A DNA stretch of 58,252 nt from positions 1 to 58,252 of the IMG/VR virus record IMGVR_UViG_3300044802_000092, one strand, 5' to 3'. The translations under genes and the position numbers were made by a program. Positions within the stretch are counted from its first letter, which is position 1. The number at the start of each line of letters is the position of its first letter. The notes below the pieces were generated by a model that was not told the DNA's origin, ran no database searches, and saw only the letters and a program-made list of their open reading frames with translations. Positions 16,957 through 58,252 of the stretch are shown here, in pieces. The stretch comes from a virus. Its lineage: Duplodnaviria > Caudoviricetes.

Positions 16957-18543
16957 TTAACCCTGCGAACTGTAAAACTTGCGGTTCAGCTCATTGAGGT
17001 CCGCAGCGGACCGGACCTTGCCCTTTATTCCCATTCCGCCTCCAGCCACGGTAAGCGCCGGGGCATCCACGGTGCGACGAACCCCGCCGTTATTGACAAG
17101 CCGCTTGGCGTTGGCGACCGCCCGAAATATTGTAGCGATTTGGCTGGCGCGGTAGGCTGAAGTGTCGAAGTTGAACTTTCCAGTAACATCCTCGATGATT
17201 CCACGCGTCCCTACGTCGGCCATGGCCGCGTCCAACACGCGACACCGGAAGTCATGTAGCCGCTGCCTTGGAAGCCGGGATTGAGCCACGCTGTCAAACG
17301 TTGGCATGCGGCAACCGGGAACGATGATCTCGGCCATGGCCACCACATCCTGGTAGGTTTCTGGCAGAGCATCATCCGACCGGTGGCGGCGGTCGCCGTG
17401 GGAGCGATGACCATCCGAGCCAGGAGGGGCCTCAAACTCAAGGTTGCCCAGAATCTTGCGATCCGAATGGTGGCGGCGGTCCGAATGGTGGCGGCGGTCG
17501 CTGTGGTGGCGGCGATGGCGGTCGCCGTGCGTAATCTGCAACGTGCCGTCATCGTCATCATCATCGTCCGACCGGGAGCGAGCACGGCGGCGGTCGCTGT
17601 GGTGGCGGCGGCGGTGCGCATCGTCATCATCGTCGTCATCCGACCGGGAGCGGGCGCGGCGGCGGTCTTCGAGGCCGACCTCTTCCGTCTCCTCGTATTC
17701 CTCTTCCGGGTCCTCCTCCGAATGGTGGCGGCGCCGGTCGTCGCTACGGGCTTTGCGATGGAGGTCACTTACCATGCGGTGCATGTGATGTAAGGAATCT
17801 TCGAGCGCCCCTATGCGCCCCTCAAGCCCTTCCGGCCCTTCTGTCTCTTCCGAGTCACGTCTACGGCGTCTCATTCTGTCTCCTTCAACTGCGTGACCAC
17901 CCGACCCAACATGCACGTGAACGTGGCCTGCTGTGTCCGTTAACCCTTCCTCGGACCCCAATCCCTCAATGTCGATGGTCCTAATGTCAATAGTTCTCAT
18001 GTCCTTTTCCTTCGCGTCCTTGATAGCACATCTCGGCCCGGCTCTTCCTTCATCAACTAGCGCGACGTGGTTGAATGTCACATTGAAATGCCGGGCTATC
18101 CCCGGAGCTAGTTCCTCGTAGTCTACATCATAGCCGCAGGATAGTTCCATTTTACCGCTAAGAATCAGCCTGATGGCCTCTTCGTCGGTTATCACTAAAT
18201 CTGCCACTAAACAGTCATGGTATTCCCCCTCTCCCCGGCGAGGATGTAGCACCGTCCCAACAGCCAAATCCTTCCAATTTGAGGGGTCGACATCGACAGG
18301 AGGATGGTTGTTGGTGACGGGTTTCCCTACCACGCTGGCAACAGCCTCCGCCCGGAACACCTCGTCTTCGTTGCGAAACACTACAACAGTACCATCTGGG
18401 CCAGGAGTTACGGGAACTTCGTCGGCGTTGTATTTGAGGGTACCCGTCCGCGTCAGCGCACACCCAACGCAAACAAGGAAACCCTCGTTGGTGAAGTAGC
18501 GGTTGGCGCTTACTTGTTCGGTAACGAAAAAGGGTTGAACCAT
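16957..18543 (-). CDS. Prohead protease/scaffold (DUF2213-like) with Asp/Arg/His low-complexity insert
   Basis: TxEGFLVC, GKPVTxxHP, ELSCGY, NHVALVDEGRAGxRCAIKD. Confidence 0.88.
   Translation of the reverse strand: MVQPFFVTEQVSANRYFTNEGFLVCVGCALTRTGTLKYNADEVPVTPGPDGTVVVFRNEDEVFRAEAVASVVGKPVTNNHPPVDVDPSNWKDLAVGTVLHPRRGEGEYHDCLVADLVITDEEAIRLILSGKMELSCGYDVDYEELAPGIARHFNVTFNHVALVDEGRAGPRCAIKDAKEKDMRTIDIRTIDIEGLGSEEGLTDTAGHVHVHVGSGGHAVEGDRMRRRRRDSEETEGPEGLEGRIGALEDSLHHMHRMVSDLHRKARSDDRRRHHSEEDPEEEYEETEEVGLEDRRRARSRSDDDDDDDAHRRRHHSDRRRARSRSDDDDDDDGTLQITHGDRHRRHHSDRRHHSDRRHHSDRKILGNLEFEAPPGSDGHRSHGDRRHRSDDALPETYQDVVAMAEIIVPGCRMPTFDSVAQSRLPRQRLHDFRCRVLDAAMADVGTRGIIEDVTGKFNFDTSAYRASQIATIFRAVANAKRLVNNGGVRRTVDAPALTVAGGGMGIKGKVRSAADLNELNRKFYSSQG
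17390..17760. repeat. Imperfect repeats encoding (R)RHHSD / RSRSDDDDD units
   Basis: Near-tandem TGGTGGCGGCGGTC units; protein HHSDRR repeated. Confidence 0.8.
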
Positions 18544-18938
18544 CAGTGTTTTCCGAAGTTACATACCAGAGCGGTTATCGGCGCGCTGCCGCCCGTAGCC
18601 GTGGTTGTGGCCGCCACGGAAATGGCCGTGTCGAACTGAACCCCCTCACCCGCAAAGGACATGCTAAGATGTGAAGCCCCCGCAATGCCGAAACTCAAAA
18701 CCGGCGGGGTCGTCCCCACCGAAACGCCTGTGGATACAACGTCAAACATCTGGATGTAGGCAACTGCAGCGTTCGCGTTATAGCACTCAATCCAACGCAG
18801 AGTGCCCTTCGCCGCCTTGAGGGCCACAGCCCCGTTAGTTAGTGCCGGGGCGGACACCGGCGTATCCCCCCGCACCGCCTGCGCTGCCGCCGGGCCGGAC
18901 AACAGCCCCGCAAGGGCCAAGATGAGCAATCTTTTCAT
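18543..18938 (-). CDS. Small beta-rich protein with signal-peptide-like N-terminus
   Basis: MKRLLILALAGLLSGPAAAQA; CYNxNAAVAYIQMFD...GVQFDTAISVAATT. Confidence 0.7.
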   Translation of the reverse strand: MKRLLILALAGLLSGPAAAQAVRGDTPVSAPALTNGAVALKAAKGTLRWIECYNANAAVAYIQMFDVVSTGVSVGTTPPVLSFGIAGASHLSMSFAGEGVQFDTAISVAATTTATGGSAPITALVCNFGKH

Positions 18939-19060: not shown

Positions 19061-22000
19061 TTATTCCGGCGAAGCACAGGGAAGTCTTCCCCACAAAGAC
19101 AGACTCTGTCCATCACTAGTTGTGGCCACACATTGCAACTGGTAAAAGATGTCCGCCACGCAGTTCCCTACCATTTGACTGACAGCGGTTCTAGGTTCCC
19201 CCGTGTAAGGCGAAGAAATGAGGGTGGGACCGCCAATTAACCGCAACGCGGGCGTAGCGTCTGTACCTGAACCGGACTCTACCGAAATGGTCACCGCGGC
19301 CGAAACAATAAACACCCCGAGCGCCAGCCGGTTGCTAAAATCGAACTTAACGATTGCCTGTTCAACCCCCGCGTCAATTGGGGGCAATAGGTCTGGACAC
19401 GCAGACAATTCCGTGGCTCCCTTTTGCATTGACATCACCCAGTAGTGGCGCGGACTAAGCATTGTGTATTTCGGAACGGGCTGGCCCAGCTTGAATGTAA
19501 CGGTTAGTCCCCGGCCTTTAGCTGAGTGCCCGGCCCGTCCGGATAAAAAGGACCAGAATCCCCCCGTTCGGCTTTCTAATACTCCGGCAGTCCGCCCCGC
19601 CAGGTTTCTTAGCCGCAGTCCCGGTGCGGCTATTGTCCTCAGCGCCGCGTGGACTTTCGCCCCCACCACTATTTTTCCCGTGACTGCCAGCCCCGCGATT
19701 AGCTTAGTCCGGGTTTTACCGGTTAGCCGGACCAGCACTCGCCAGTAGTTGGACACTTGGACTGTTGACCCGGCCCGGCCCGAAAGGAACACATGTAGTT
19801 TCGGCGTCTCCTTAGTCTTGACCGCAGTAAGAACTATTCCCTTCAAATGTGCCAGCCCTGTAAACCGGGCGCCCCCGAAGGTCTGAGACGTAGCTTTCGC
19901 TTTAGTAATGGTCAGCTGCAACCTTGGACTTCCGGTTTCTGCAACCCGCGTCCTGGCCCCTCCTGACACCCGCAGCGGGTACCTGGACTTGCCCCATAGT
20001 TGCCCCATAAACCCTGCTGTGCCCGACATGAGCCGCAAAGCCGACCATCTACCGCGACTCTGCACCTGTGTGTCGACAGACCCTAGCAATCCTGCTGTTA
20101 GTTCTATTATTGTCCTTCCCGCCGCGAGGACTGCTGTGCGTGCGGCAACAGCTATCGAAAGTTGAGGGACATTGGCCCCCAGAGCAGACTGAAGAACATT
20201 TATTGCTGCTAGTGGGGCTTTGATAAACATATCAGCGGCCCCCTGAAGGTTGGCCGTCGTAGCCGCTGATACTGCGGTCTTTCCGAGATAACTCGTGTGT
20301 ACCCTTAGCGCTGCCAGTGCAGCTCCGCCCAACCGCATGTACCATGCGGGAATTGAGGGGGAAGAAACCGCCAGAGCTGTTTTGCCCGATACCCCCACCC
20401 TCAGATATGGGGTAATTTTCCCCCCTGCCGCGGTCCGAATTGCCGCGTAGATATTAAGCACCTCTGCGGCTAGGTTAGACATAGCACGTACAGCGGCCCT
20501 GGTCATAATCTGGGCGGGCATGTAAACCGGCAACCTGGGTGTGTTCGCTCTCAGGTTGCCGGTTGCCGTGGTTTGTCCTGAACAAAGCACGGCAGGAATA
20601 ACCGTGCTGGGGGCGAATATTGCGGCAAGCGCCCGGCCCAACAAGGGGCCTGACAAAAACGGCGAGGCGTTAAGCCTTCCGCCCGCCGCTGCTCTTCCGG
20701 ACAACCCGGAAACCAACGCCGTTAATCCTTTTCCGGTTCCGGCCGCCGCTGCTCTTCCGGACAACCCGGAAACCAACGCCGTTAATCCTTTTCCGGTTCC
20801 GGCCGTCCCGGCGTTCCCGGTCAGGCCGAGCCCAAGACGGGGAACTTCCTTCAAGAAGCCTGCCGCAAATACCACCGCCGCCGCTCGAATGGGGTAGCTC
20901 TCGTTTGGCCGCACGCTACTTGTACACCCCACAGTCCCATAAATGCTAGCAGGAAGCAAAGAGGTGTACGTAAGAATAATGATGCCCGGCCCCCCAGCCT
21001 GCATATGTGCGGTGTCCGATCCCCCCGACCCCCCACCATATGCCCCGGCGGTGGTAACCAGCCCTGCGGCTGAAAAGCCGATGTCCCCGCCCGCACATCC
21101 CCCGCTGCCCGAACCGGGACCGGCAGTCGCCCCTCCAACCGTAGCCGTCCACAGAGTTTCTGCGCTGTTGGCCCCGCCCGCATTCGTACCATTTGATGCC
21201 CCTGACCCGCCGCCACCGCCACCGCCACCGGCGGACCCCGCACCCCCCGCTGTCCCTGCCCCGCTACCGCTGCCCGCTGTGCCCGCCCCCGCACTAGACC
21301 TATTGGTTCCACCCACCCCGCCAGCCGCCGAGCTATGGTTGCCTCCTGTCCCCCCGCCGTCAGCGCCCCCGCCGCCTCCACCACCAGAATCGAAGCCTCC
21401 AGCGCCCCCGTTTGCGCCTGCCCCATGTGGGCCGCCCGCGCCGCCGCCGCCGCTATTGCAGTTACTACTTGTGTTATATGAGGGGCTATACCCCCCTGAA
21501 TATGCGGTGTCCCCGATACAAGACCCTGATGCCCCTCCGGGGGAGTTTCCTGAACTTGAGACCTGTCCCGCTTTCGCCAACACCCCAACTGAGGTGGATG
21601 CTGGCGGAACGTTGGCCGCTATATTTACCCAGGAATCTTGGCCATTGGAGGGCGCACCCACCCCCCCACCAATTCCCGAAGTTCCGTTCCCGCCTGAACC
21701 TGAACCATTGGTGGTGCCCGCACCCCCGGCACTGGCTGTTCCCCCGTTTGACCCGCCCCCGCCCCCCGCGCTGTACCCAATATTACTGCCGCTTCCGTAA
21801 AACCCCGCCCCGCCATTCTTACCCGCACCCGTTGGTCCAGCCGACCCGCCACCGCCCCCGCCCCCGCCCGCCGCACTTGATCCAGAGCTGCCCGCCCCGC
21901 CGGTGCCGCCCGAATATGTAACATTTCCAATGCAGCTGGCAGCCGCCCCTCCAGCCCCGCCCGTAAGATTTGAACCTGCGGTCCCCGCAACCGCCAAACA

Positions 22001-22783
22001 CCCCGATGCGGTACTGGTGGGGGCAGAATTGGCGTTGAAGTTTATCCAGGTTTGCGTCCCCGCCGCCCCAATCGAATAATAAACTGTTCCTCCGGCAGTT
22101 ACTGGGACAGCGTTGGTCCTAGAATATGCCCCTCCCCCGCCGCCCGCTCCACCGTTTGACTTCGTGCTGGCCAGGGCGCCCGCCGCACCCCCTCCAATAC
22201 ATTCGAACTGAGCCGCCGACACCCCGTTGGGTACCACTATCGACCCCGCCCCGGTAACCGTAAGGTAATTGGCTGTACCCCACGTAATAACCCCAAGACC
22301 TTGCGCCCCCGCACCCGCAGTGCCTCGACCGCCTGCACCATTATTTCCACCTACCCCGCCGCCCCCGCCTCCGTAATTTCCGGCGCTTCCCCCAGACAAA
22401 GTGGAACTACTACTGTAGTCACCCCCCGATCCGCCGCCCCCGCCGCCACACCCGACACTGCTGGACCACGTGGTGTCTGTCCCCCCGGCACCCGACACTA
22501 CTCCTGTTCCTGCGGCGAACCCCCCACCGCCCCCGCCGCCGCCGCCATATAACCCCGCCGCCCCCGCTGACGGCTTGATGCCTGCCCCAACATTCAGATA
22601 GATGGTCTGACCGGGCGTGACGGTAAGGCTGTTGGTTTTGGCATAGGCCCCGCCCCCGCCTCCACCTGTGAGAATGTTGCATCCCCCGCCTGGGCCAATA
22701 GCTTCTGCTTGAATCGCAGTCACACCTGCGGGCACAGTCCAAGTCTGAGGCCCGGCGGTAGTAAAAAGTGTTGTCGTTGACAC
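19061..22783 (-). CDS. Large glycine-rich virion fibre-like protein
   Basis: 1240 aa; TWTVPAGVT...GGGGGAY Gly-rich domains, Ala-rich central repeats, C-terminal Ig-like adaptor domain. Confidence 0.75.
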   Translation of the reverse strand: MSTTTLFTTAGPQTWTVPAGVTAIQAEAIGPGGGCNILTGGGGGGAYAKTNSLTVTPGQTIYLNVGAGIKPSAGAAGLYGGGGGGGGGFAAGTGVVSGAGGTDTTWSSSVGCGGGGGGSGGDYSSSSTLSGGSAGNYGGGGGGVGGNNGAGGRGTAGAGAQGLGVITWGTANYLTVTGAGSIVVPNGVSAAQFECIGGGAAGALASTKSNGGAGGGGGAYSRTNAVPVTAGGTVYYSIGAAGTQTWINFNANSAPTSTASGCLAVAGTAGSNLTGGAGGAAASCIGNVTYSGGTGGAGSSGSSAAGGGGGGGGSAGPTGAGKNGGAGFYGSGSNIGYSAGGGGGSNGGTASAGGAGTTNGSGSGGNGTSGIGGGVGAPSNGQDSWVNIAANVPPASTSVGVLAKAGQVSSSGNSPGGASGSCIGDTAYSGGYSPSYNTSSNCNSGGGGAGGPHGAGANGGAGGFDSGGGGGGGADGGGTGGNHSSAAGGVGGTNRSSAGAGTAGSGSGAGTAGGAGSAGGGGGGGGSGASNGTNAGGANSAETLWTATVGGATAGPGSGSGGCAGGDIGFSAAGLVTTAGAYGGGSGGSDTAHMQAGGPGIIILTYTSLLPASIYGTVGCTSSVRPNESYPIRAAAVVFAAGFLKEVPRLGLGLTGNAGTAGTGKGLTALVSGLSGRAAAAGTGKGLTALVSGLSGRAAAGGRLNASPFLSGPLLGRALAAIFAPSTVIPAVLCSGQTTATGNLRANTPRLPVYMPAQIMTRAAVRAMSNLAAEVLNIYAAIRTAAGGKITPYLRVGVSGKTALAVSSPSIPAWYMRLGGAALAALRVHTSYLGKTAVSAATTANLQGAADMFIKAPLAAINVLQSALGANVPQLSIAVAARTAVLAAGRTIIELTAGLLGSVDTQVQSRGRWSALRLMSGTAGFMGQLWGKSRYPLRVSGGARTRVAETGSPRLQLTITKAKATSQTFGGARFTGLAHLKGIVLTAVKTKETPKLHVFLSGRAGSTVQVSNYWRVLVRLTGKTRTKLIAGLAVTGKIVVGAKVHAALRTIAAPGLRLRNLAGRTAGVLESRTGGFWSFLSGRAGHSAKGRGLTVTFKLGQPVPKYTMLSPRHYWVMSMQKGATELSACPDLLPPIDAGVEQAIVKFDFSNRLALGVFIVSAAVTISVESGSGTDATPALRLIGGPTLISSPYTGEPRTAVSQMVGNCVADIFYQLQCVATTSDGQSLSLWGRLPCASPE
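20685..20805. repeat. 60-bp perfect tandem duplication (AGTGKGLTALVSGLSGRAAA x2)
   Basis: GCCGCTGCTCTTCCGGACAACCCGGAAACCAACGCCGTTAATCCTTTTCCGGTTCCGGCC twice. Confidence 0.9.
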
Positions 22784-43819: not shown

Positions 43820-45670
43820 ATGTCAAGCCGGTTTGACTACAGTGATGTGTTAGTTGAGGTGTTTAACCGGCTTGACCGGGCGTCTGAGGTGGTGGTTGAC
43901 GTTGAGACTTCTGGGTTAAGCCCATTGCGCAATCACATCGTGGGGTATGCGCTGTGTTTCGGCCCCGCCCCTCAAGATTCCTACTACTTGCCCGTGCGGC
44001 ATGCGCCGGGCGGCAACTTTACCGATATCCCCGCCCCCCAAACCGCAGATGGGTGGGATGGTACAACCCCGCTGTGGGAAAGACAGCTGCTGGACAGACT
44101 AAACCGGCAAAACCTCAGGGTTGTGGGCCACAACTTGAATTTCGACTTGAAGATGATGTGGCGGGCTGGATACCAGTGTCTGCGCTCTAGATATGAAGAC
44201 ACACAGCTCAACGCGGCTCTGCTCAACGAATGGCAGGGCAAGTTTTCCCTAAAGGCCTGCGCTGGCATAGCGGGGGTACAGGCAAAACTATCAGACGAAA
44301 TCTCGGCCCACATCCAAGCCCAGTTCCCCGACGAAAATCTCCCTGAGAAGGGAATAATGGCCCACTACTGGCGGCTAAACGGGGCGGACCCCGTGGCGGT
44401 CGACTACGCAAGGGGAGACGGTACGACCACGTGGCAGCTAGCTCAGTGGCAACGGGAAAGACTCGAAAAAGAGCAGCTATTAAAGGTTTGGGATATTGAG
44501 TGCCGGTTGATTCCCGTGCTAGTTCGACAAACCATGTTCGGGGTGCGGATCGACGAGGAGCGGCTGCACGGGCTGCAGACGGAGATAACTGCCAAGATCG
44601 ACGGGTTGATGTCAAAGTTTCCGGAAGGGTTCAACGTGCGGTCCCCCGGATGTGTCCGGGCCTGGTGTGAAGCCCACGGCAACACGGATTGGCCCCTTAC
44701 CCCCAAGAAACAACAGCCTTCGTTTCCGGAGAGCTGGCTAGAAACCCATGATGCGGGCCGGGCGATAGTAGAACTCCGGCAGATGCAGACTTTAATGAGC
44801 AGTTTCATCCGGCCGATGATGGAAACCCACCTGTTTAAAGGTAGAGTCCACACAACGTTCAATCAACTGAGAGGGGACGACTACGGCACTATTACAGGAA
44901 GGTTGTCGTCCAGTGACCCCAACCTTCAACAAATTCCGCACCATTCCAACCCGGCTTTGGGAGCGCTTTTCCGTTCCATATTCGTCCCCGACGAGGGGAA
45001 GATGTGGGCGGAGCGGGACTACAGCCAGGCTGAGCCCAGGCTACTTGCTTATTATTCCCGGTGTGCCGTTTTGTTAGACGATTATCGAAACAACCCGAAG
45101 GCCGACGCTCACGCCGCTGTAGCGCGGGCCACGGGCCTGGACAGGCAAACCGGTAAGCGCGTCAATCAAACGCTGCTCACCGGGGGAGGAAAGGGCGTTC
45201 TAACAACCAAATACAAGATAACCCCGGAAGACGCAAAAAAGGTGTGGAACGACTATTTCGAACGGCTCCCCGAAATTAAAACGCTCCAAACCGAATCCCG
45301 GCTAAAAATGCGTCGGCGGGGTTACGTGCGCACCCTGCTCGGCCGGAAGTGCCGGTTGCTTGACTTCAACAAAGCTTACGTGTCCATGAACCGGTTGTTA
45401 CAGGGGGGCAACGCGGACATAACCAAGTACAAGATGGTTCAGGTTGACGAGTATCTGGCCAGCGAGGGGCGGCCAATCGAGGTACTGCTCAGCATTCATG
45501 ACTCCCTCAACTTCCAGTTTTCTGAAGAATATAGACACATTTACGAGCGGTGCGGCGAGATCATGGCCGACTTCTCCTCCGGCCAGTTGATCGAGCTGGA
45601 TGTACCGATGAAAACCGATGCGGGTGAGGGGAAGAACTGGGCGGAAGCCACCTACGGAGAAAAGAAGTAA
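43820..45670 (+). CDS. Family A DNA polymerase (3'-5' exonuclease plus polymerase)
   Basis: VDVETSG, HNLNFD, TGRLSSSDPNLQQIP, DYSQAEPR, QGGNADI, SIHDS. Confidence 0.93.
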   Translation: MSSRFDYSDVLVEVFNRLDRASEVVVDVETSGLSPLRNHIVGYALCFGPAPQDSYYLPVRHAPGGNFTDIPAPQTADGWDGTTPLWERQLLDRLNRQNLRVVGHNLNFDLKMMWRAGYQCLRSRYEDTQLNAALLNEWQGKFSLKACAGIAGVQAKLSDEISAHIQAQFPDENLPEKGIMAHYWRLNGADPVAVDYARGDGTTTWQLAQWQRERLEKEQLLKVWDIECRLIPVLVRQTMFGVRIDEERLHGLQTEITAKIDGLMSKFPEGFNVRSPGCVRAWCEAHGNTDWPLTPKKQQPSFPESWLETHDAGRAIVELRQMQTLMSSFIRPMMETHLFKGRVHTTFNQLRGDDYGTITGRLSSSDPNLQQIPHHSNPALGALFRSIFVPDEGKMWAERDYSQAEPRLLAYYSRCAVLLDDYRNNPKADAHAAVARATGLDRQTGKRVNQTLLTGGGKGVLTTKYKITPEDAKKVWNDYFERLPEIKTLQTESRLKMRRRGYVRTLLGRKCRLLDFNKAYVSMNRLLQGGNADITKYKMVQVDEYLASEGRPIEVLLSIHDSLNFQFSEEYRHIYERCGEIMADFSSGQLIELDVPMKTDAGEGKNWAEATYGEKK

Positions 45671-45674
45671 TCCC

Positions 45675-46172
45675 ATGCTCGAAACAGACCTGCAGTCGGC
45701 CGTTGTAAAGTCCGTAATAACCGCAGGCGGGTCCGCACACAAGTTGAGCAACCGGTTTATTACCGGAGTGGCGGACCTGTTAATCAAGATTCCGGAGTTT
45801 GAGGCCTTCTGCCTGGAGGTGAAGTTTGGGCGGTACACCCCACCCCTCAGGGTTAAGGACGTGTCTGTGCCCCTCAAGACCCCCCAGTGGCGGTTCTTGA
45901 GGAATTACTGGCGGGCGGGCATGCCTACGGGGGTGTTGAGCTTTGCGGGACATAACTGTCAAAGCATGTGGGTTACGGTCCTGTGGGCCAACGACTTCCG
46001 CCGTTTTCGGACGGCGGACACGGAACCAGATTGGCTGTTTAAGATTCCGGCAGAGCGGTACGTCAAACTAGACCCCCGAACCCCGGAGTTCGTCGCTCTT
46101 CTCAAACAATCCCTCACCGCCCTTAATCAAACAACAGGAGGCCTGCACAATGTCCGTGATGGAGCTGATTGA
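45675..46172 (+). CDS. PD-(D/E)xK nuclease (VRR-NUC / Holliday junction resolvase-like)
   Basis: ETDLQ...GVADLL...LEVK...Q. Confidence 0.7.
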   Translation: MLETDLQSAVVKSVITAGGSAHKLSNRFITGVADLLIKIPEFEAFCLEVKFGRYTPPLRVKDVSVPLKTPQWRFLRNYWRAGMPTGVLSFAGHNCQSMWVTVLWANDFRRFRTADTEPDWLFKIPAERYVKLDPRTPEFVALLKQSLTALNQTTGGLHNVRDGAD

Positions 46173-46494
46173 AGAAAAAGCTAAAACACACGGGGACTTC
46201 ACCGACCAAGCTCAAATGGCGCAGGGCCTGAAGTCTGTCTTACATGCCTCCCGCCGTTGGGACGGCATGACCGCTGTCCAGCGGGAGGCGGCAGAAATGA
46301 TTTTACACAAGCTGGCGCGGGCATGCAGTGGGGACCCCTGGGCGCGGGACCATTGGCAGGACATCGCGGGGTACGCTACGATGGTGGCCGACCGCAGTCC
46401 ATGCGCGCACGCCGCAGAGATATACGGCGGCAGCGGCGGCGGCACAGCGGTGTGTCAGGGATGCGCCTCTCAGGGTGATGGAGTAAAGTTATGA
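46150..46494 (+). CDS. DUF6378-like all-alpha protein (possible dNTP pyrophosphohydrolase)
   Basis: THGDF, EAxEMIxHKLAR, GDP...DHWxDIAGYA. Confidence 0.75.
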   Translation: MSVMELIEEKAKTHGDFTDQAQMAQGLKSVLHASRRWDGMTAVQREAAEMILHKLARACSGDPWARDHWQDIAGYATMVADRSPCAHAAEIYGGSGGGTAVCQGCASQGDGVKL

Positions 46495-47564
46495 GTGTGT
46501 TAACTGACCTGTGTATCCCCGGTCGAGCATCGTTTATCGTCGGCGGGCAGTTTGGCAGTGAAGGAAAAGGGGCGGCGGCGGCGTTTTTGGCAACACGCCT
46601 AGCCACAGCCGGGATGAAATTCAACCTGCACACCACTAACGCCGGAGCGCAGGCTGGACATACTAGCATTCATATGGGGAAAACCCGAGTCACCAACTTC
46701 TTGCCTACCGCAGCAATTGTTGCGGCGGATCACGGTCCAGAGTTCCTGTCAACAATCTATCTCAACGCCGGGGCAATCATCAACCCAGACGCGTTGCTGG
46801 CAGAAGCGAGGGAGTTTATACCTCAATTTATGGATGGGAAGTTTTTTATTCACCCCAACGCCGCCGTTATTACCGAGGATTGTGTTGCGGTCGAAAGGAG
46901 TTCTACGTCTCCTGCAACAGCCATTTCTTCAACCCGCAAGGGGGTGGGTGAGGCCCTGGTCCGCAAGGTTTCCCGATGTGGGAATATTGCCAGCAATGTC
47001 GAAAGTTTGAAGCCGTTCATAGCAAACATAGACCTTAATCGGCAGCTGCGGGCCTGGACCTCCGTTTTAATTGAGGTCCCCCAGGGTCTGGGTTTGAGCC
47101 TAGATTCCCAGTTCTACCCCTACTGCACCAGCAGAAACTGTACGGTAGAAAAGGGGATGGACGACGCCCACATTCACCCCCACTTTTACGGGAACACCAT
47201 GCTCGTTCTTCGAACTTACCCCATCCGAGTTGGTAGTTTGGAAGGGCACTCTTCGGGAGGTTGTTACCCAGATCAGCGCGAAATATCCTGGGAGGAACTC
47301 GGTAGAAAGCCGGAATTGACTACAGTGACAAAGCGACAGCGGCGGGTCTTCACGTTTTCTATGACACAGGCCCGCGAGGCGATACGGCGGCTGCGCCCCA
47401 CCGTGATTTTTCTGACTTTTTGCGACTATCTGAAGGACAAGGTGGAGGCATATCGAATGGCTAAATCCTTGGCCCTTATGATTCAAACCGAGGGGCTGCC
47501 CGAGGCGGAAATCTATGGGGCATGGGGGCCAACAACCACGGACGTAACTGGGCTTGCTGTGTAA
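46491..47564 (+). CDS. purZ: Adenylosuccinate-synthetase homolog, PurZ0-like (2-aminoadenine biosynthesis)
   Basis: GGQFGSEGKG (Ser in place of the PurA catalytic Asp), QAGHT, YPYCTSR, TYPIRVG, ELTTVTKRxRR, LTFCD. Confidence 0.8.
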   Translation: MSVLTDLCIPGRASFIVGGQFGSEGKGAAAAFLATRLATAGMKFNLHTTNAGAQAGHTSIHMGKTRVTNFLPTAAIVAADHGPEFLSTIYLNAGAIINPDALLAEAREFIPQFMDGKFFIHPNAAVITEDCVAVERSSTSPATAISSTRKGVGEALVRKVSRCGNIASNVESLKPFIANIDLNRQLRAWTSVLIEVPQGLGLSLDSQFYPYCTSRNCTVEKGMDDAHIHPHFYGNTMLVLRTYPIRVGSLEGHSSGGCYPDQREISWEELGRKPELTTVTKRQRRVFTFSMTQAREAIRRLRPTVIFLTFCDYLKDKVEAYRMAKSLALMIQTEGLPEAEIYGAWGPTTTDVTGLAV

Positions 47565-52424: not shown

Positions 52425-53962
52425 TGTCACGGCCCGTGTGGAGTCCCCAGCAGCTAGCAATCTTTGACTGGGTAAAGAAAGGTAGGGGCAACGCCTTTGT
52501 GGAGGCGGTGGCGGGGGCGGGAAAGACCACCACGTTGGTAGAGGTGTGTGCGTTGTTGCAAGGGCAAAGCGCGGCTTTTGCGGCGTTCAACAAAAACATT
52601 GCTGACGAAATCGGTGAACGCGTGCGGGCGCGGGGATGTTCAAGGGTGTTCACTGGCACTTTTCATAAGTTTGGGTTGGCCATTTGGCGCGGCACCTATC
52701 CGAAAGTCCAAGCCGGACCGGAAGCGGCCAAAGAAAAATCAAAGCTAGTCAACACCAAACTAAACACCCCCAAAAATCTTGTGTCCGTACTTGACAACCT
52801 AGTGGGCCAGGCCAAGCAGCGCGGCATAGGGACTCCGGGGCTGCCAATTGAGGATGCCGCATTGTGGCTGGCCATAATCGAGCATTTCGGGATAGATGAG
52901 GACCTTCCCGCATCTGTAAACGTAGACACCGTAATAGAAAGGGCCATGGCCGCCCTCAGACTGCACGTTGAAATGAAAGAATTGTTAGATTTCAACGATA
53001 TGGTATATATGCCCGTGCATGACGATATGCGGGGATTTCAAAACGATTGGCTGATGGTCGACGAGTGTCAAGACCTTAACGGATCGCGGCGCATGCTAGC
53101 TCGTCAGATGTTGCGTCCGGGGGGCCGGGCGATATTCGTTGGAGATAGATTTCAGGCGATTTTTGGGTTCAACGGAGCCGACGCCGACGCGGTCAACCAG
53201 CTTACTGCAGATTTTAATTGCGCCCGGCTGCCTCTCACCATTACTTACCGCTGCCCGAAAAAGGTCGTGGAGCAGGCCCAGGCGTACGTCCCTCACATTG
53301 AGGCCGCCAAATCCGCCCCTGAGGGAAAGGTGTCAGTTATCTCTCAGGCTGAACTATATAAGACTCAATTCGTCCCTGGGGAAGACGCCGTTCTTTGCCG
53401 CAATACGCGGCCCCTGGTGCGATTGGCTTATATTCTCATCGGGCGAGGGGTGCCCGCTTATGTTGAGGGAAGGGACATTGGTAAAGGTCTGCTAAAACTT
53501 GTCGCTAGGTTCGACCAGCCCTCATCCCTCAACGCAATGCTGGTCCGTCTAAGTGCATATTTAAGCCAGGAAACGGTAAAATTGCGGGCCGCAAATAAAG
53601 AAATGCAGGCCGCAGCGTTGGAAGACCGCGTGGAAACCCTTGAGGCAATCGCAGAAGAGTGTACCACAGTCGGGGGCCTCAAGGATCGCATTACCTCTTT
53701 GTTTGAGGATGGAGACCGGGCTTTGGGCCAGCGGCCGGTGCTTTCGACCGTACACAAGGCAAAGGGCCGCGAATGGTCGCGGGTGTTCGTGTTAGGTTAC
53801 GATCTATATATGCCGAGTTGTTACGCAACTAAAGACTGGGAAAAAGAGCAGGAAAACAACCTCGTATATGTAGCGTACACACGAGCTAAACGGGAACTGG
53901 TACTGGTAGAGGGGGAGAGGAAAAATGGTCACGGGGAAAATCTACGGAAAGTCAACCATTAA
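52424..53962 (+). CDS. UvrD/Rep-family SF1 helicase
   Basis: AVAGAGKTT, VDECQD, VGDxxQAIFGFxGA, STVHKAKGRE, YVAYTRA. Confidence 0.9.
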   Translation: MSRPVWSPQQLAIFDWVKKGRGNAFVEAVAGAGKTTTLVEVCALLQGQSAAFAAFNKNIADEIGERVRARGCSRVFTGTFHKFGLAIWRGTYPKVQAGPEAAKEKSKLVNTKLNTPKNLVSVLDNLVGQAKQRGIGTPGLPIEDAALWLAIIEHFGIDEDLPASVNVDTVIERAMAALRLHVEMKELLDFNDMVYMPVHDDMRGFQNDWLMVDECQDLNGSRRMLARQMLRPGGRAIFVGDRFQAIFGFNGADADAVNQLTADFNCARLPLTITYRCPKKVVEQAQAYVPHIEAAKSAPEGKVSVISQAELYKTQFVPGEDAVLCRNTRPLVRLAYILIGRGVPAYVEGRDIGKGLLKLVARFDQPSSLNAMLVRLSAYLSQETVKLRAANKEMQAAALEDRVETLEAIAEECTTVGGLKDRITSLFEDGDRALGQRPVLSTVHKAKGREWSRVFVLGYDLYMPSCYATKDWEKEQENNLVYVAYTRAKRELVLVEGERKNGHGENLRKVNH

Positions 53963-54140
53963 ATTGGTGCAGCGATGGAGGCGAAACGACGAAATATACG
54001 GTGAGTATCTGAGGGGCCGCACCCATAGGCAGTTGGCGGCGAAGTTTCGACTTTCGCGAAGCCGCATCGTCCAAATCATACAGGGGGAAGAATTAAATGG
54101 AAGAGGCACCCAAACTGAGCCTGGACGGGTACCTGACTGA
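53925..54140 (+). CDS. Small HTH protein (Mor-like)
   Basis: RNDEI...GRTHRQLAAKFRLSRSRIVQII. Confidence 0.65.
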   Translation: MVTGKIYGKSTIKLVQRWRRNDEIYGEYLRGRTHRQLAAKFRLSRSRIVQIIQGEELNGRGTQTEPGRVPD

Positions 54141-54354
54141 AGCCGAGCTATATCACATTTTAAAGCGGCGGCTAAAACCCCGCGAGGTATATTTAGCCGC
54201 CCGTGAACTGGGAATCAGCAGCTGCGTGTTGCATAGGATGTACAAACGTCAAATGGGAATATCGGTACGGGTGGCATGGTGGCTTGGGTACCGGTGTTTT
54301 AGGCCCATACCCAAGTTGAAAATCTACGTGCCTGTGCCGAAGGACGAGCTATGA
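54097..54354 (+). CDS. Small putative DNA-binding protein
   Basis: AARELGISS HTH-like segment. Confidence 0.55.
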   Translation: MEEAPKLSLDGYLTEAELYHILKRRLKPREVYLAARELGISSCVLHRMYKRQMGISVRVAWWLGYRCFRPIPKLKIYVPVPKDEL

Positions 54355-54652
54355 CCTATGAGTGCTATTGTGATGGGGACCTCCCGGGTGTTTCCAAACC
54401 TACTGCACCTGCCGCCGATGTCTGGATCTGAGGAATTGGGCGAAAATTTCCGCGCCTTGTTTCTGTTGGGCCTACGGTGATCTGCATGACGCGGTACGGG
54501 AACTGGTGGCGCAGGTTGCGCCGGACGTGCCAGGGGTCGCGCAAGAATGGGAGGCACTAATGATGGAAATCCGAAGGGCTAAAAACGTACCCAAAGCAAT
54601 ATGCGACACCGTGTCACATCAAGCGGTGTTTCCGAACAAAGCAAATACTTGA
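54351..54652 (+). pseudogene. Frameshifted Cys-rich (zinc-binding) phage gene
   Basis: MTYECYCDGDLPG continues in another frame as FQTYCTCRRCLDLRNW...CFCWAYG. Confidence 0.5.
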
Positions 54653-54677
54653 CAAACCCGGTCAAGTATGATAAAAT
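54647..54677 (+). promoter_or_regulatory. Strong early promoter with overlapping inverted repeat
   Basis: TTGACA-17-TAAAAT; TACTTGAC-N7-GTCAAGTA palindrome over the -35. Confidence 0.75.
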
Positions 54678-54781
54678 TAAAACATAGATAGGGCGGCGAG
54701 GGGAGCGGGGCAGGAGCCCACAAACCAGACCGGGAAGCCCAGGGTGAAACAGTCGAGCTGACCTCACCAGAAAACAACCAA

Positions 54782-54828
54782 TGTCGTGGGATGGGCGTCC
54801 CACCTGATGAGCCGAAAACGGCGAAACA
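54782..54828 (+). ncRNA. Hammerhead ribozyme (type III topology)
   Basis: GUC, stem I GUGGGAU/GUCCCAC, CUGAUGA, stem II GCCG-AAAA-CGGC, GAAA, 3-bp stem III. Confidence 0.75.
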
Positions 54829-54852
54829 AACTGTCAAACATAGGAAACTAAC

Positions 54853-55041
54853 ATGACTAACTACATCGTCACAATGCGCTTCCAGTTCCCCGCGTGGGAC
54901 GAAAAAGACGGTATCGAATTCGAGGTGTCGGCTGCCAATAAGCGTGAGGCTAATGCAAAAGGCCGCCGCCAAGCGAAAGATGCCGGCCATGCGAGAGCAA
55001 ACCGCGGCCTCTACTGGTTCAAAGCAACTGAGGCGCGCTAA
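54853..55041 (+). CDS. Small early protein
   Basis: ATAGGA RBS; MTNYIVTMRFQFPAWDE. Confidence 0.7.
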   Translation: MTNYIVTMRFQFPAWDEKDGIEFEVSAANKREANAKGRRQAKDAGHARANRGLYWFKATEAR

Positions 55042-55219
55042 GCGCCTCACCCCAAGAAAGGCAATGCGAGAGCAAACCGCGGCCTCTACTGGTTCAAAGC
55101 AACTGAGGCGCGCTAAGCGCCTCACCCCAAGAAAGGCAATGCGAGAGCAAACCGCGGCCTCTACTGGTTCAAAGCAACCGAGGCGCGCTAAGCGCCTCAC
55201 CCCAAGAAAGGCAATGCGA
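54989..55219. repeat. 75-bp tandem triplication
   Basis: Units start at 54989, 55064, 55139; one SNP in unit 3; bounded by ATGCGA. Confidence 0.92.
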
Positions 55220-55253
55220 ATGTACAAATGGATTGGATCTCACCGAAAAACAC

Positions 55254-55298
55254 TGTAGTAGGATGTATGTCCTACCTGATGAGCTGAAAATAGAAAGT
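55254..55298 (+). ncRNA. Degenerate hammerhead ribozyme copy
   Basis: GUA, stem I GUAGGAU/GUCCUAC, CUGAUGA; stem II and stem III damaged. Confidence 0.5.
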
Positions 55299-55320
55299 AA
55301 ACTGTCAAAAGGAACTGAAC

Positions 55321-55692
55321 GTGAAAAAGTGCCTCACCCAAACAACTGCCGATACGGCTCCCGTCCACCTGGCGATTTGGTACTTCGAGCGCGGCGTCAA
55401 GATCTATAAAATTTCGCCCTGCGTGTGTGGCGACCTTTCCGGCGTGCGCGGCGATCTTACCGGCGTGAGCGGCTATCTTTCCGGCGTGCGCGGCGACCTT
55501 ACCGGCGTGCGCGGCGACCTTACCGGCGTGTATGGCGATCTTACCGGCGTGAGCGGCGACCTTACCGGCGTGTATGGCGATCTTACCGGCGTGAGCGGCT
55601 ATCTTTCCGGCGTGCGCGGCGATTTGGATGACGCCGAAATAACCAACGCCGATCGCGAACTTGGTGTTAACATTGCTGACCTAATTCAGTAA
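55321..55692 (+). CDS. Heptapeptide-repeat protein (GDLTGVx)
   Basis: About nine 21-bp repeats GGCGA(C/T)CTTACCGGCGTG-NNN. Confidence 0.75.
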   Translation: MKKCLTQTTADTAPVHLAIWYFERGVKIYKISPCVCGDLSGVRGDLTGVSGYLSGVRGDLTGVRGDLTGVYGDLTGVSGDLTGVYGDLTGVSGYLSGVRGDLDDAEITNADRELGVNIADLIQ

Positions 55693-55761
55693 TAAATTTG
55701 AGGGGCTTCGGCCCCTCATTAGTCCATTTTTAGGACAAACCGTTAAACATAGGAGAATAAC

Positions 55762-56043
55762 ATGACTAAGACTATCGTTACTGCGGTTATCGTCACTGAA
55801 GACAGCACTGTTGGCTTCTCCACCTGCGTTGCGGAAGACGGATCGCTGGAATAGGTAATCGACGGTGCAATTGAAACGGCCATTGAGCAATACGAAGAGG
55901 GAACGAATTGCTCCGTTCCCTCCTTGCATCGGGTGATTGTTCACGTCGATACGGTACCCCCGTTAAAGCACCGTATCACTAGTGTCCACCATGTTTTACC
56001 TGAGCAGGACAACGACGAAGTAATTACAACGACCTTGTCATAG
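55762..56043 (+). pseudogene. ORF interrupted by in-frame TAG
   Basis: AGGAG RBS, ATG 55762, TAG at 55852 (codon 31), frame open to 56043. Confidence 0.6.
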
Positions 56044-56129
56044 CACATTAGGGGATTCGGGGCAAATCCCGAATCCCCCCCTTAGTCCCTTTGTAAAAAT
56101 GGACATTTAGTAAAACATAGGGGAATAAC

Positions 56130-56381
56130 ATGCGGAAGTACCTAACCCTCAACGTTCAGCTTACGGCTTCGGTTAATGATTCGGTCACCAGTCTGGATGC
56201 TGTCAACGCGTTCGTTAATTGGCTCAAATACTCGCTTGTTCAGGGTCAACCGCTGTCCCGGGACGACCGCATTGATCTTATATTCGAGAAGCTGGGTCAG
56301 ATTAAGCTGGAGGACCTGACATTTTATCCTTGGCCCGAAGCCTCGCTCCCGCCTAAACCGGAAGATCTCACCGGAGTCTAA
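56130..56381 (+). CDS. Hypothetical early protein
   Basis: AGGGG RBS after cassette element. Confidence 0.7.
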   Translation: MRKYLTLNVQLTASVNDSVTSLDAVNAFVNWLKYSLVQGQPLSRDDRIDLIFEKLGQIKLEDLTFYPWPEASLPPKPEDLTGV

Positions 56382-56458
56382 ATATTGCAAGGGAGGATGG
56401 GTCGCCCCATCCTCCTGTTAGTCCCTTTTCGGACAGACTGTCAACAAAGGAGAACGTG

Positions 56459-56620
56459 ATGTTCAGATGTTGCGTAGCCACGTTACTAATACTGGTTTTC
56501 ACGCTTTCGGCCCGGGCCAACTATGGCAGCCGGTGCGGATACTGGCGGGCCACTTCTTCGCAGGTGTGGCACCCGCTGTGTGGGGGAAAACCGGTCTGGT
56601 CTCCCGCAGGTCTCAAATAA
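56459..56620 (+). CDS. Small secreted Cys-containing peptide (53 aa), not in ORF track
   Basis: AAGGAG RBS; MFRCCVATLLILVFTLSARA-NYGSRCGYWRATSSQVWHPLCGGKPVWSPAGLK. Confidence 0.6.
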   Translation: MFRCCVATLLILVFTLSARANYGSRCGYWRATSSQVWHPLCGGKPVWSPAGLK

Positions 56621-56668
56621 ATTTGAGGGGCCGAAGCCCCTCGTTTGCTTAAACTAAAGGAGGTAATA

Positions 56669-56872
56669 ATGTTTAAGCTTGGTTGTGCAATATTGACACT
56701 AGGACTGCTATTGGGGGCGGCCCCAGCGGTGGCACAGTACCCGGACGTTTGTCCTAACCACTGTGCCCGTAAGTGCCTGCAGTGGGTGCAGACAGAGGCT
56801 TACGGCGCCCGGTGTGTGCGAGTTGCCTGTATCTGCTCGCCCCGCCCCTGGCGGCAGAATCCCCCATATTGA
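56669..56872 (+). CDS. Secreted six-cysteine defensin-like peptide
   Basis: AAGGAGGT RBS; signal peptide ending AVA; C-x3-CxxxC-x12-C-x4-CxC. Confidence 0.7.
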   Translation: MFKLGCAILTLGLLLGAAPAVAQYPDVCPNHCARKCLQWVQTEAYGARCVRVACICSPRPWRQNPPY

Positions 56873-56943
56873 GGTCTAATTTGAGGGGGTTTCGACCCCC
56901 TCGCTTGGTCCATTTTTGGACAAACTGTCAAAAGGAGATATCA

Positions 56944-57138
56944 ATGAAACTTACCATTGAAATGCAAATGGACACCCCGGCTTTTACTCGGGCAAGTAAT
57001 AATCTGGAAGTGGCCCGCATTTTGATCAATCTTGCCCAGATATTCATGATGGGGCAGCCCCTTGTCGAGGGAGACCACGACATTTTGAAGGACATTCAAG
57101 ACTTAAGAATCGGATATTACGAAGTGGAAGACATCTAA
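56944..57138 (+). CDS. Conserved small phage protein
   Basis: MKLTIEMxMDxxAF...EVARIL...D; AAGGAG RBS. Confidence 0.75.
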   Translation: MKLTIEMQMDTPAFTRASNNLEVARILINLAQIFMMGQPLVEGDHDILKDIQDLRIGYYEVEDI

Positions 57139-57206
57139 GCGTTCTGGGCGGGGGCTGTAGCCCTCGCCCTCTAATCTGTGTCTAACTTTACCCTTGAGGA
57201 GACAAA

Positions 57207-57563
57207 ATGTCCGACGAAACCACCCCTCCCGTTTCCGAGCCCGTAAATGGCAACCTGGCCAGCCCCAACGCTCTTTTTATGGGGCTTGTCAAACATTGCC
57301 ACGACCATCTGGGTGTATTGGTGAATGGTCTCAGCGTTGCAATGGCCACATACCCTAAGGAAGTGCAAGTGGCAGCGTTGGCTGCGGCGTGCGGTGAGGT
57401 GTTGAGTCAGGCTTCGCTTTTGTCCAACATTCAGCACACACTGGCCCTGCGGGCAAAAATACGGGGGATGTTCAAGCAGGCCCTAGCCCAGTATGCCCCC
57501 GCCATTCAGCCCGGCGGTCCCTTGGCGACCATGCCTCCCGTTCCTCCGGCCAACCGCAATTAG
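57207..57563 (+). CDS. Hypothetical protein
   Basis: GAGGAG RBS. Confidence 0.7.
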   Translation: MSDETTPPVSEPVNGNLASPNALFMGLVKHCHDHLGVLVNGLSVAMATYPKEVQVAALAAACGEVLSQASLLSNIQHTLALRAKIRGMFKQALAQYAPAIQPGGPLATMPPVPPANRN

Positions 57564-57895
57564 TGGGGTTTATTACTAAACGTCCACGTGGCCTGATCCA
57601 GGCGGGATGTGAGTTTGGTGAGTTCCTGATTTATTGTGGAATGTAGCCGGTCATTCGCCTGGATGTTTTCCCTCAGCTCTCGATTAAGGTTTCCTAACTG
57701 TTGTTCGAGCCCTTCTACCCGCCGGACAATGTCGGCGGTTTTCAACTCGCACGCACTAATTCGGCCGCCAAAGCCAAACACCCCCATTTGACTCAGCAAC
57801 ATCAAGAGCACCACGGCGAAGTTTATGAGGCCGATAGTGGCCGCAATTTCCCCCCGAAGTTTGTAAACCCATTCTTTCATTTCGGTGCTTGACAT
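57560..57895 (-). CDS. Membrane-anchored coiled-coil protein (possible lysis accessory)
   Basis: One TM helix then heptad coiled coil; late-strand orientation. Confidence 0.6.
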   Translation of the reverse strand: MSSTEMKEWVYKLRGEIAATIGLINFAVVLLMLLSQMGVFGFGGRISACELKTADIVRRVEGLEQQLGNLNRELRENIQANDRLHSTINQELTKLTSRLDQATWTFSNKPH

Positions 57896-57931
57896 GGTCC
57901 CCGGCCTCTTAACTTAAGGAAGAATCTTAAC

Positions 57932-58225
57932 ATGGTAGACGTGTTGTTAGTTCGAAGAGCCGATGCCGGCCGCAGGGGATACATCTATGACATATATTTA
58001 GGCCCTGAAGTTTTGGCAAGCGGAGTCAGCCCCGAATACAAAACATGCCGGGGGCTGTTAGCCAGGGGTTATAACGGAAAAGTCAGATTTTGGAGGGCGG
58101 GCAGGAGGAGTCACGATTTTGAAATGGACATATCAAAATGTGCGGGTCGAACCCTTAGTGAGGGACAACACGGATTCAGCCTCGGCCGGTGGGCACCCTT
58201 CGAAGGGGTCTCAGGGGTTGGTTAA
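57932..58225 (+). CDS. Hypothetical protein
   Basis: AAGGAG RBS; CRxLLARGYxG...TLSEG...RWAPF. Confidence 0.7.
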   Translation: MVDVLLVRRADAGRRGYIYDIYLGPEVLASGVSPEYKTCRGLLARGYNGKVRFWRAGRRSHDFEMDISKCAGRTLSEGQHGFSLGRWAPFEGVSGVG

Positions 58226-58252
58226 CGCGCGCCGCCCCGCGATATCGGTCGA

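Follow-up and report, generated by a model that had tools for sequence, protein, structure and literature searches.

Two adjacent small ORFs for predicted exported peptides, one with six cysteines, in a myovirus genome detected in peat

The window analysed here, a stretch of 58,252 bp that comprises the whole of one IMG/VR virus record (IMGVR_UViG_3300044802_000092; 98% complete by CheckV), is a near-complete 58-kb myovirus genome. Towards its right end it carries two adjacent small open reading frames (ORFs), ORF A (56459–56620, + strand) and ORF B (56669–56872, +), each predicted to encode a cysteine-containing peptide with an N-terminal export signal. The anatomy of the two ORFs, the slot that they occupy, the likely fold of ORF B, and the readings that may account for the pair are described below.

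Two small ORFs and the slot they occupy

ORF A starts with ATG and encodes a precursor of 53 residues (MFRCCVATLLILVFTLSARANYGSRCGYWRATSSQVWHPLCGGKPVWSPAGLK), with a GTG one codon upstream (56456) and a Shine-Dalgarno sequence, AGGAG (56448–56452, +), 6 nucleotides (nt) before the ATG. Residues 1–20 (56459–56518) form a predicted signal peptide, with cleavage predicted between ARA and N21, and the mature part of 33 residues (56519–56617) has two cysteines, three tryptophans, and a net charge of +4. ORF B also starts with ATG, 5 nt downstream of the Shine-Dalgarno sequence AGGAGG (56658–56663, +), and encodes a precursor of 67 residues (MFKLGCAILTLGLLLGAAPAVAQYPDVCPNHCARKCLQWVQTEAYGARCVRVACICSPRPWRQNPPY); use of an in-frame TTG at 56645 would lengthen the product to 75 residues. 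The predicted signal peptide of ORF B (residues 1–22; 56669–56734) is composed of MFK, a 15-residue hydrophobic core, and AVA, with cleavage predicted before Q23. The mature part (45 residues; 56735–56869) has a net charge of +4, a proline-rich tail, and six cysteines spaced C-x3-C-x3-C-x12-C-x4-C-x-C, the fourth of which lies within GARC (GxxC). Cysteine accounts for 13% of mature B, compared to 1.1% of the residues in 21 large phage proteins. Both N-termini share an arrangement of one basic residue, 13–15 hydrophobic residues, and then A-x-A, and the cysteine count of each mature part is even.

A preliminary description of the locus, made from the DNA letters, had quoted exactly these coordinates and translations. 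Much else in it was borne out: mature A is a two-cysteine, tryptophan-rich peptide, mature B is net basic with six cysteines in CxxxC, GxxC, and CxC motifs, a rule-based script called Sec-type signal peptides ending in AxA on both, and the two ORFs are phage-encoded, lying in a virus record that holds sheath, portal, capsid, terminase, and replication genes. A reading of either precursor as a lipoprotein or o-spanin was rejected, as neither has a lipobox cysteine at the end of the hydrophobic core and the cysteines at precursor positions 4–6 sit too near the N-terminus for a lipobox. Paralogy of the two ORFs was not established, the likeness between them being confined to the level of the signal peptide (E = 0.015–0.02).

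When the whole genome was scanned on both strands for ORFs of 30–150 residues with a ribosome-binding site (RBS), a basic N-terminus, and a hydrophobic core, five distinct ORFs were recovered. Two of these run across longer ORFs, which either match PHROG families or are located on the coding strand; the remaining three are ORF A, the adjoining ORF B, and a 131-residue ORF in the structural module. Each of ORFs A and B exactly fills a cassette running from hairpin to hairpin, as do neighbouring genes with clearly positive coding scores. The cassette of ORF A follows a GC-rich hairpin with an 11-bp stem (56391–56416, +; 56382–56458, z = −3.06 versus shuffles) that closes the cassette of the preceding gene (56130–56381), and begins with a leader (56420–56444, +) identified by both motif search and alignment, in which a small TTAGTCC...GGAC hairpin is followed by GACAGACTGTCAA. 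A second GC hairpin of eight pairs with a T-rich tail (56624–56643, +; z = −2.49), a candidate terminator-like element or attenuator, separates ORF A from ORF B, and a third (56883–56902, +; 56873–56944, z = −2.56) closes the cassette of ORF B ahead of the next leader, GACAAACTGTCAA (56919–56931, +). In an alignment of eight upstream regions, that of ORF B lacked the GGACAAACTGTCAA module; no leader motif separates the two ORFs, which may therefore share one transcript.

Related phages were sought through the major capsid protein (MCP; PF09950), which has thousands of relatives at 70–93% identity (3,504 with E ≤ 1e-20 among 8,000 candidates scored). From IMG/VR, 141 relatives were found and 80 kept, and 25 related records were searched whole. 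The 118-residue gene located 3' of the two ORFs was present in a single one of the 25 records, G001 (MCP, 89% identical), and the two phages have in common, in the same order, a helicase, the 118-residue gene, a gene of 97/109 residues, a gene with a transmembrane (TM) segment plus coiled coil, and a holin-like gene. The slot in G001 (locus L114, 2321–3013, −) is occupied by two adjacent small signal-peptide genes with mature parts unrelated to those of A and B; one (91 residues) is rich in Gly, Tyr, Pro, and His, the other (73 residues) in Tyr, Trp, and Gly, neither has a cysteine in its mature part, and neither had a Pfam match. A GC hairpin resembling the one between ORFs A and B separates them. 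As position and export signals persist in G001 while the sequences have been replaced, the slot looks, at the level of sequence, like a fast-turnover site for exported peptides. A search for relatives based on the helicase gave a best match of 42% identity that was non-syntenic downstream, and alignment searches with the 118-residue gene and the holin-like gene returned only G001 again.

Both ORFs are orphans. A word-indexed search of 5.8 billion protein clusters found only ORF B itself, while an exhaustive HMMER search over 1.84 billion representatives gave two further matches (P0003 and P0004; E = 4.6e-6 and 4.3e-4) that were rejected, each consisting of three stretches of short repeated motifs within a long protein that lacks the cysteine pattern. 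No homologue of ORF A was found in the protein-collection search, and no PHROG or NCBIfam family was found for either ORF. The only Pfam family reported for ORF B (at E ≤ 1 and E ≤ 10) was TIL (PF01826), below its cut-off (15.9 and 16.6 bits versus a gathering cut-off of 24.5; E = 0.014 and 0.0088) and aligned over profile positions 8–44 and 9–44 of 55; TIL domains have ten cysteines and ORF B six. Sequence searches of the PDB gave chance rows only, pattern scans with ORF B confirmed none of 95 pattern matches in IMG/VR and none of 600 in GTDB genomes, and tblastn of both ORFs against 30 loci gave nothing below E = 0.67. Among the 25 related phage records (17 of them at least 90% complete), none matched ORF B at E ≤ 10.

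The cultured MCP relatives listed are phages of Edwardsiella, Burkholderia, Acinetobacter, Bordetella, Klebsiella, or Citrobacter, together with one for which no host is given; the best was an Edwardsiella phage (62% identity). As all of the listed relatives with a host infect Gram-negative proteobacteria, a Gram-negative (diderm) host is likely, in which case Sec would deliver the peptides to the periplasm. Action in the envelope or in the periplasm, the latter put forward in the preliminary description, appears plausible from the hosts of the listed MCP relatives and from the G001 slot, whose genes also carry export signals.

The fold of ORF B

The preliminary description had taken the cysteines of ORF B for the signature of a cysteine-stabilised alpha-beta (CS-alpha-beta) defensin. 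A published regular expression for mining bacterial defensins is CX(2,18)CX(3)CX(2,12)CX(4,17)CXC (PMC11561630). The spacing of ORF B (3/3/12/4/1) fits this expression, with two loops, of 12 and 4 residues, at its limits. Across 780,285 six-frame residues from 113 records, seven stop-free segments matched, and ORF B was the only match with exactly six cysteines, the other six being wrong frames with 9–18 cysteines. When six cysteines were placed at random in 45 positions, 1.0% of the placements had CxxxC and CxC at the ranks required. The same paper gives GXC as present in all 74 bacterial defensins (PMC11561630), and ORF B does not have this motif directly before its fourth cysteine, where GARC is found. 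No CS-alpha-beta family appeared in whole-Pfam scans of ORF B, even at E ≤ 10, and the profiles Toxin_5 (PF05294), Toxin_2 (PF00451), and Defensin_2 (PF01097), run over the six frames of the genome, had no match at ORF B.

Structure prediction followed by a Foldseek comparison with defensins, the check proposed in the preliminary description, yielded a helix-free hairpin and no significant match to a solved chain. Both of two AlphaFold2 single-sequence runs gave a two-stranded hairpin with no helix, the strands spanning mature residues 10–20 and 24–34, with a mean predicted local distance difference test score (pLDDT) of 76 for mature B and 65 for the precursor, and about 86–90 over the hairpin; for disulfide-rich mini-proteins, modelling from a single sequence carries little weight. 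In the modelled register only C10 and C34 would face each other. Foldseek returned four PDB matches for the model, all with E ≥ 3.6 and none at E ≤ 0.001. In a VIA-wide comparison, 3 of 48,161 chains reached Z ≥ 2, the best (Z = 2.4) being hairpins of a cystine-knot hormone and CTCK; no defensin was listed among the VIA-wide matches, which excludes nothing.

Comparison by ESM features placed mature B nearest to Toxin_5 (0.82; 172 of 256 features), Toxin_3 (0.82), and Toxin_2 (0.77), and all ten of the best named neighbours fell within one clan, scores to be read as a lead only given that the ESM Atlas bar is 0.9 and that 0.8 is reached by a third of shuffled proteins. The full-length precursor had a best score of 0.77 and no toxin neighbours, with an Atlas model at pLDDT 0.57.

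Taken together, the defensin assignment was not borne out: GXC is absent, the profiles are silent, and the AlphaFold2 models are helix-free, while the fit to the mining expression and the sub-threshold ESM neighbours point only weakly the other way. A predicted fold without a helix had been named in the preliminary description as an outcome that would tell against its proposal, and the models therefore count against the defensin claim, with moderate to low model confidence. ORF B may adopt either a disulfide-braced hairpin or a CS-alpha-beta-like fold, and a CS-alpha-beta fold appears unlikely.

Genome setting and the small-gene array

The structural module (451 to ~33.9 kb, −) contains tail fibre, baseplate, tape measure, sheath, major capsid, protease, portal, and terminase genes, and is followed by replication and metabolism genes (35.2–54.0 kb, +) for a primase, a DNA methyltransferase-like protein, a DNA polymerase, a PurZ-like enzyme, a ribonucleotide reductase, and two helicases. 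An array of small genes (+), headed by a strong sigma-70-like promoter, takes up the rest of the record beyond 54.6 kb. No integrase or repressor family was found among 68 ORFs scanned against PHROGs, and on that scan the phage appears to be a lytic-type myovirus. The window had no DNA similarity to INPHARED phages. Phage DNA was detected in three peat metagenome DNA runs, one of which contains 0.96 of its words and is possibly the source sample, and no variants over ORF A or ORF B were found in contigs from the peat runs.

Around the ends of the record, a holin-like gene with two TM segments (10–252, −), the TM plus coiled-coil gene (57560–57895, −; weak similarity to Rz-like spanins, phrog_89, E = 0.03), and a gene at the record end (57932–58225, +) are kept in order in G001. 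The linear record is therefore a circular permutation, with a probable lysis module across its ends.

Elsewhere in the genome, the PurZ-like gene (46491–47564, +) matched phrog_1211 (6e-55), and amino_Aden_PurZ of NCBIfam was the best-scoring PurA-type model for it (200 bits; cut-off, 300); the DNA of the phage may thus contain 2-aminoadenine (Z), and the genes beside the PurZ-like one at 45618–46494 may encode companion enzymes. In the head module, a 1,240-residue ORF (19061–22783, −) had no PHROG family at E ≤ 1e-5 and is adjoined by the 131-residue ORF recovered in the genome scan (18543–18938, −), which has a clear signal peptide.

The promoter of the array (54649–54677, +; TTGACA, 17 nt, and TAAAAT with TG; 11 of 12 matches) is the only promoter-like site in 53900–58252. 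Most genes of the array are arranged as cassettes, each comprising a GC hairpin, a TTAGTCC(N5-12)GGAC leader, (G)ACAAACTGTCAA, a ACATAGGAG-type ribosome-binding sequence, and ATG. Within 54783–57209 (+) the shared leader, which runs TTAGTCC(N5-12)GGAC, AAACTGTCAAAC, ATAGGAG, and ATG, precedes five genes, in agreement with the alignment of the eight upstream regions, where a common leader module was found before five cassettes. A search with the leader motif gave six matches at two or fewer mismatches (1.68 expected), four of them at 54825–56931 (+), and G001 retains the hairpin, TTAGTC, and ACATAGG parts. Candidate roles for the leader are a promoter, a processing site, or a translational operator.

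Some 100 nt past the strong promoter, and immediately 5' of the first gene of the array, lies a match to the type III hammerhead ribozyme (54782–54828, +; Rfam RF00008, 34.2 bits, gathering cut-off 48.5, E = 1e-4) with a GUC cleavage site, CUGAUGA, hairpins for helices I and II, GAAA, and a helix III of 3 bp in cis; the 3' half of the cassette leader recurs after this match. A degenerate hammerhead-like copy (~55255–55300, +) before the gene at 55321 has the CUGAUGAG word and the helix I hairpin, with a helix II and GAAA core that look damaged, and was unreported by Rfam at E ≤ 1. Hammerheads have reportedly been seen in phages; none was found in the equivalent region of G001. Between the two copies, 55029–55250 (+) consists of three tandem 75-bp units, each made up of the last codons of the gene at 54853–55041 (phrog_13774, E = 3e-15) and an identical GC hairpin (55029–49, 55104–24, and 55179–99). 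The 123-residue ORF at 55321–55692 (+) consists largely of 21-bp repeats that encode G-D-L-T-G-V-R/S/Y heptads, and small length differences in it were seen in a contig of run X1.

Coding status, proposed role, and comparison with known systems

The favoured reading, held at a probability of about one half, is that ORFs A and B are real, strain-specific accessory genes whose products would be exported disulfide peptides acting in the envelope of a Gram-negative host. ORF B is very probably a gene and ORF A probably one. The two would probably be co-transcribed as part of the array driven by the host-type promoter at 54649–54677. Both precursors would be exported by Sec, with their signal peptides cleaved after AxA, and the mature peptides would be oxidised in the periplasm, where A could form one disulfide and B up to three. 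Small and cationic, the peptides might then act on a component of the envelope during infection, the presumed time of their expression. That the contents of the slot differ between close relatives suggests a fast-evolving interaction at the level of the envelope. By analogy with T4 Spackle, the favoured effect would be exclusion of competing phages, or else masking or inhibition of an envelope component. On this analogy A and B possibly mediate superinfection exclusion; no relation of either, by sequence or family, to a known exclusion protein was found in PHROG or NCBIfam.

Several points weigh against this reading. Nothing ties A or B to exclusion over any other envelope function. The signal peptides were called by a rule-based script alone, the host is placed by type only, from the MCP relatives, and the replacement of the slot was seen in one relative, G001, of the 25 records. 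With no homologue of A or B, there is in consequence no support from conservation or from the ratio of non-synonymous to synonymous substitutions (dN/dS), and no RNA runs carrying phage sequence were listed beside the three peat DNA runs. Codon log-odds that include amino-acid composition were intermediate for both ORFs (A, −3.4; B, −0.1), compared to 17.6 ± 6.8 for in-frame 60-codon windows and −26.2 ± 14.6 for out-of-frame windows. Finally, the protein collection, in which even a 30-residue neighbour is present, lacks ORF A, which was therefore apparently skipped by the gene caller of the source.

The near-zero codon scores, the absence of ORF A from the collection, and the lack of homologues and of listed RNA runs would also be expected if either ORF or both, and ORF A in particular, were untranslated, a non-coding spacer or decayed gene in which the signal-like and cysteine-rich features are accidents of an odd frame; further, the +2 frame of ORF A (56467–56652) has a log-odds of +0.4, on a par with ORF A's own. 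That frame, however, has no RBS within 12 nt and is poorer in synonymous codon usage (−0.033), whereas ORFs A and B are each preceded by a strong, ideally spaced RBS and show synonymous usage within the range of real genes (A, 0.073; B, 0.071; controls, 0.088 ± 0.074 in frame and −0.021 ± 0.107 in open wrong frames). Low composition-sensitive scores are expected of cysteine- or tryptophan-rich peptides with hydrophobic leaders, and two adjacent, cassette-filling, signal-like ORFs on the right strand stand against a background of ~2 false hits per genome, at a slot that in G001 encodes predicted exported proteins. ORF B, along with four neighbours, is present in the protein collection as a singleton cluster and had therefore been called as a gene by the source annotation. 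Non-translation of one or both is regarded as unlikely. Were both translated as factors of lysis timing instead, periplasmic and antiholin- or lysis-inhibition-like, they would communicate with the nearby lysis genes, from which they are ~0.7–1.4 kb distant (the holin-like gene at 10–252, by circular wrap, and the TM plus coiled-coil gene at 57560–57895). The signal region of ORF B is rich in Gly, Ala, and Thr, as signal-anchor-release domains typically are, that of T4 RI among them. Against this, the lysis-like genes belong to another transcription unit, on the strand opposite to A and B; the two ORFs have no similarity to any lysis family, and were swapped in G001 while the lysis-like genes were kept, where a cognate regulator should have changed along with its partner. 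A role in lysis timing is considered improbable.

The remaining alternative accepts export but makes ORF B a genuine CS-alpha-beta peptide, cis-defensin or scorpion-toxin-like, with ORF A as its partner peptide. A helix would carry C10 and C14 and be tied to a strand with C32 and C34, with a further bond between C6 and C27, and the product would be antimicrobial or bind a channel or lipid II, either at the envelope or once lysis had freed it from the periplasm. Such a pairing of CxxxC with CxC, in helix-strand geometry, would satisfy all six cysteines, while the modelled hairpin would pair only one CxxxC/CxC cysteine directly across its strands; the match to the mining expression (PMC11561630), its rarity among six-frame residues and random placements, and the single-clan toxin neighbours argue in the same direction. 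Bacterial defensins with signal peptides also exist, one of them from Acidobacteria. Opposed to these are GARC in place of GXC, the two loops at the limits of the expression, a C4–C5 loop (VRVA) that appears to have no turn-forming residue, the silence of the Pfam profiles, the absence of a helix from both AlphaFold2 runs, and ESM scores that fall under the bar and lose their toxin neighbours with the full-length query. A true CS-alpha-beta peptide is considered unlikely. Slightly less probable still would be the composite claim that ORF B is the first phage CS-alpha-beta peptide, set with ORF A in a hypervariable slot that swaps unrelated secreted mini-proteins; no description of a phage-encoded cis-defensin was found in the literature, judged by titles and abstracts.

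Under the favoured reading of A and B as exported accessory peptides, the locus bears on a class of proteins, the small exported envelope proteins of phages, that is known from few model phages and almost never annotated in metagenomic phages. An exported phage peptide of 45 residues with six cysteines is absent from the families in PHROGs, Pfam, and NCBIfam, and one of this knottin-like size would add a new structural type to the exported phage proteins. Two related phages with paired, predicted exported mini-proteins at one position, their sequences replaced, offer a testable locus for envelope-level competition between phages, and the slot might also yield new envelope-targeting peptides. 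A true defensin-like fold would extend cis-defensins to viruses of bacteria. Under the composite claim, the phage would carry an arsenal of peptides, envelope-active or antimicrobial, that reach their site through the Sec and Dsb machinery of the host.

Among known systems, Spackle (gp61.3) of T4 is a periplasmic protein of 97 residues that contains one disulfide and loses a 22-residue signal peptide by cleavage. It is linked to resistance against subsequent infection, and its mature form (75 residues, 23–97) targets the lysozyme domain of gp5 (PMC7650644). Like Spackle, A and B are small and phage-encoded, with a predicted Sec signal and possible disulfides; unlike it, their mature parts are of 33 and 45 residues, unrelated in sequence, and without a known target. 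The bacterial cis-defensins, exemplified by xanthusin-1 and actifensin, fall into five classes (PMC11561630). ORF B resembles them as a small signal-peptide precursor with a cationic, six-cysteine mature part that fits the mining expression and comes from a soil setting, but differs in its want of GXC and of profile or sequence similarity, in its helix-free models, and in being phage-encoded.

The short-chain scorpion toxins (Toxin_2, PF00451; Toxin_5, PF05294) are the nearest ESM clusters to ORF B (0.77–0.82, sub-threshold scores), and have a similar cysteine rank pattern with a 4-residue C4–C5 loop. The profiles of these toxins nevertheless miss ORF B, which comes from an unrelated organism and context, and nothing points to a common ancestor. 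Nearer in genomic setting are the phage 'morons' and hypervariable accessory cassettes, a concept due to Hendrix. As with morons, the genes of the slot are small, have their own leader and hairpin terminator, lie between conserved genes, and differ between close relatives; unlike morons, they are in a genome in which lysogeny genes were not found among the ORFs scanned, and the slot keeps export signals on two adjacent small genes across the replacement of their sequences.

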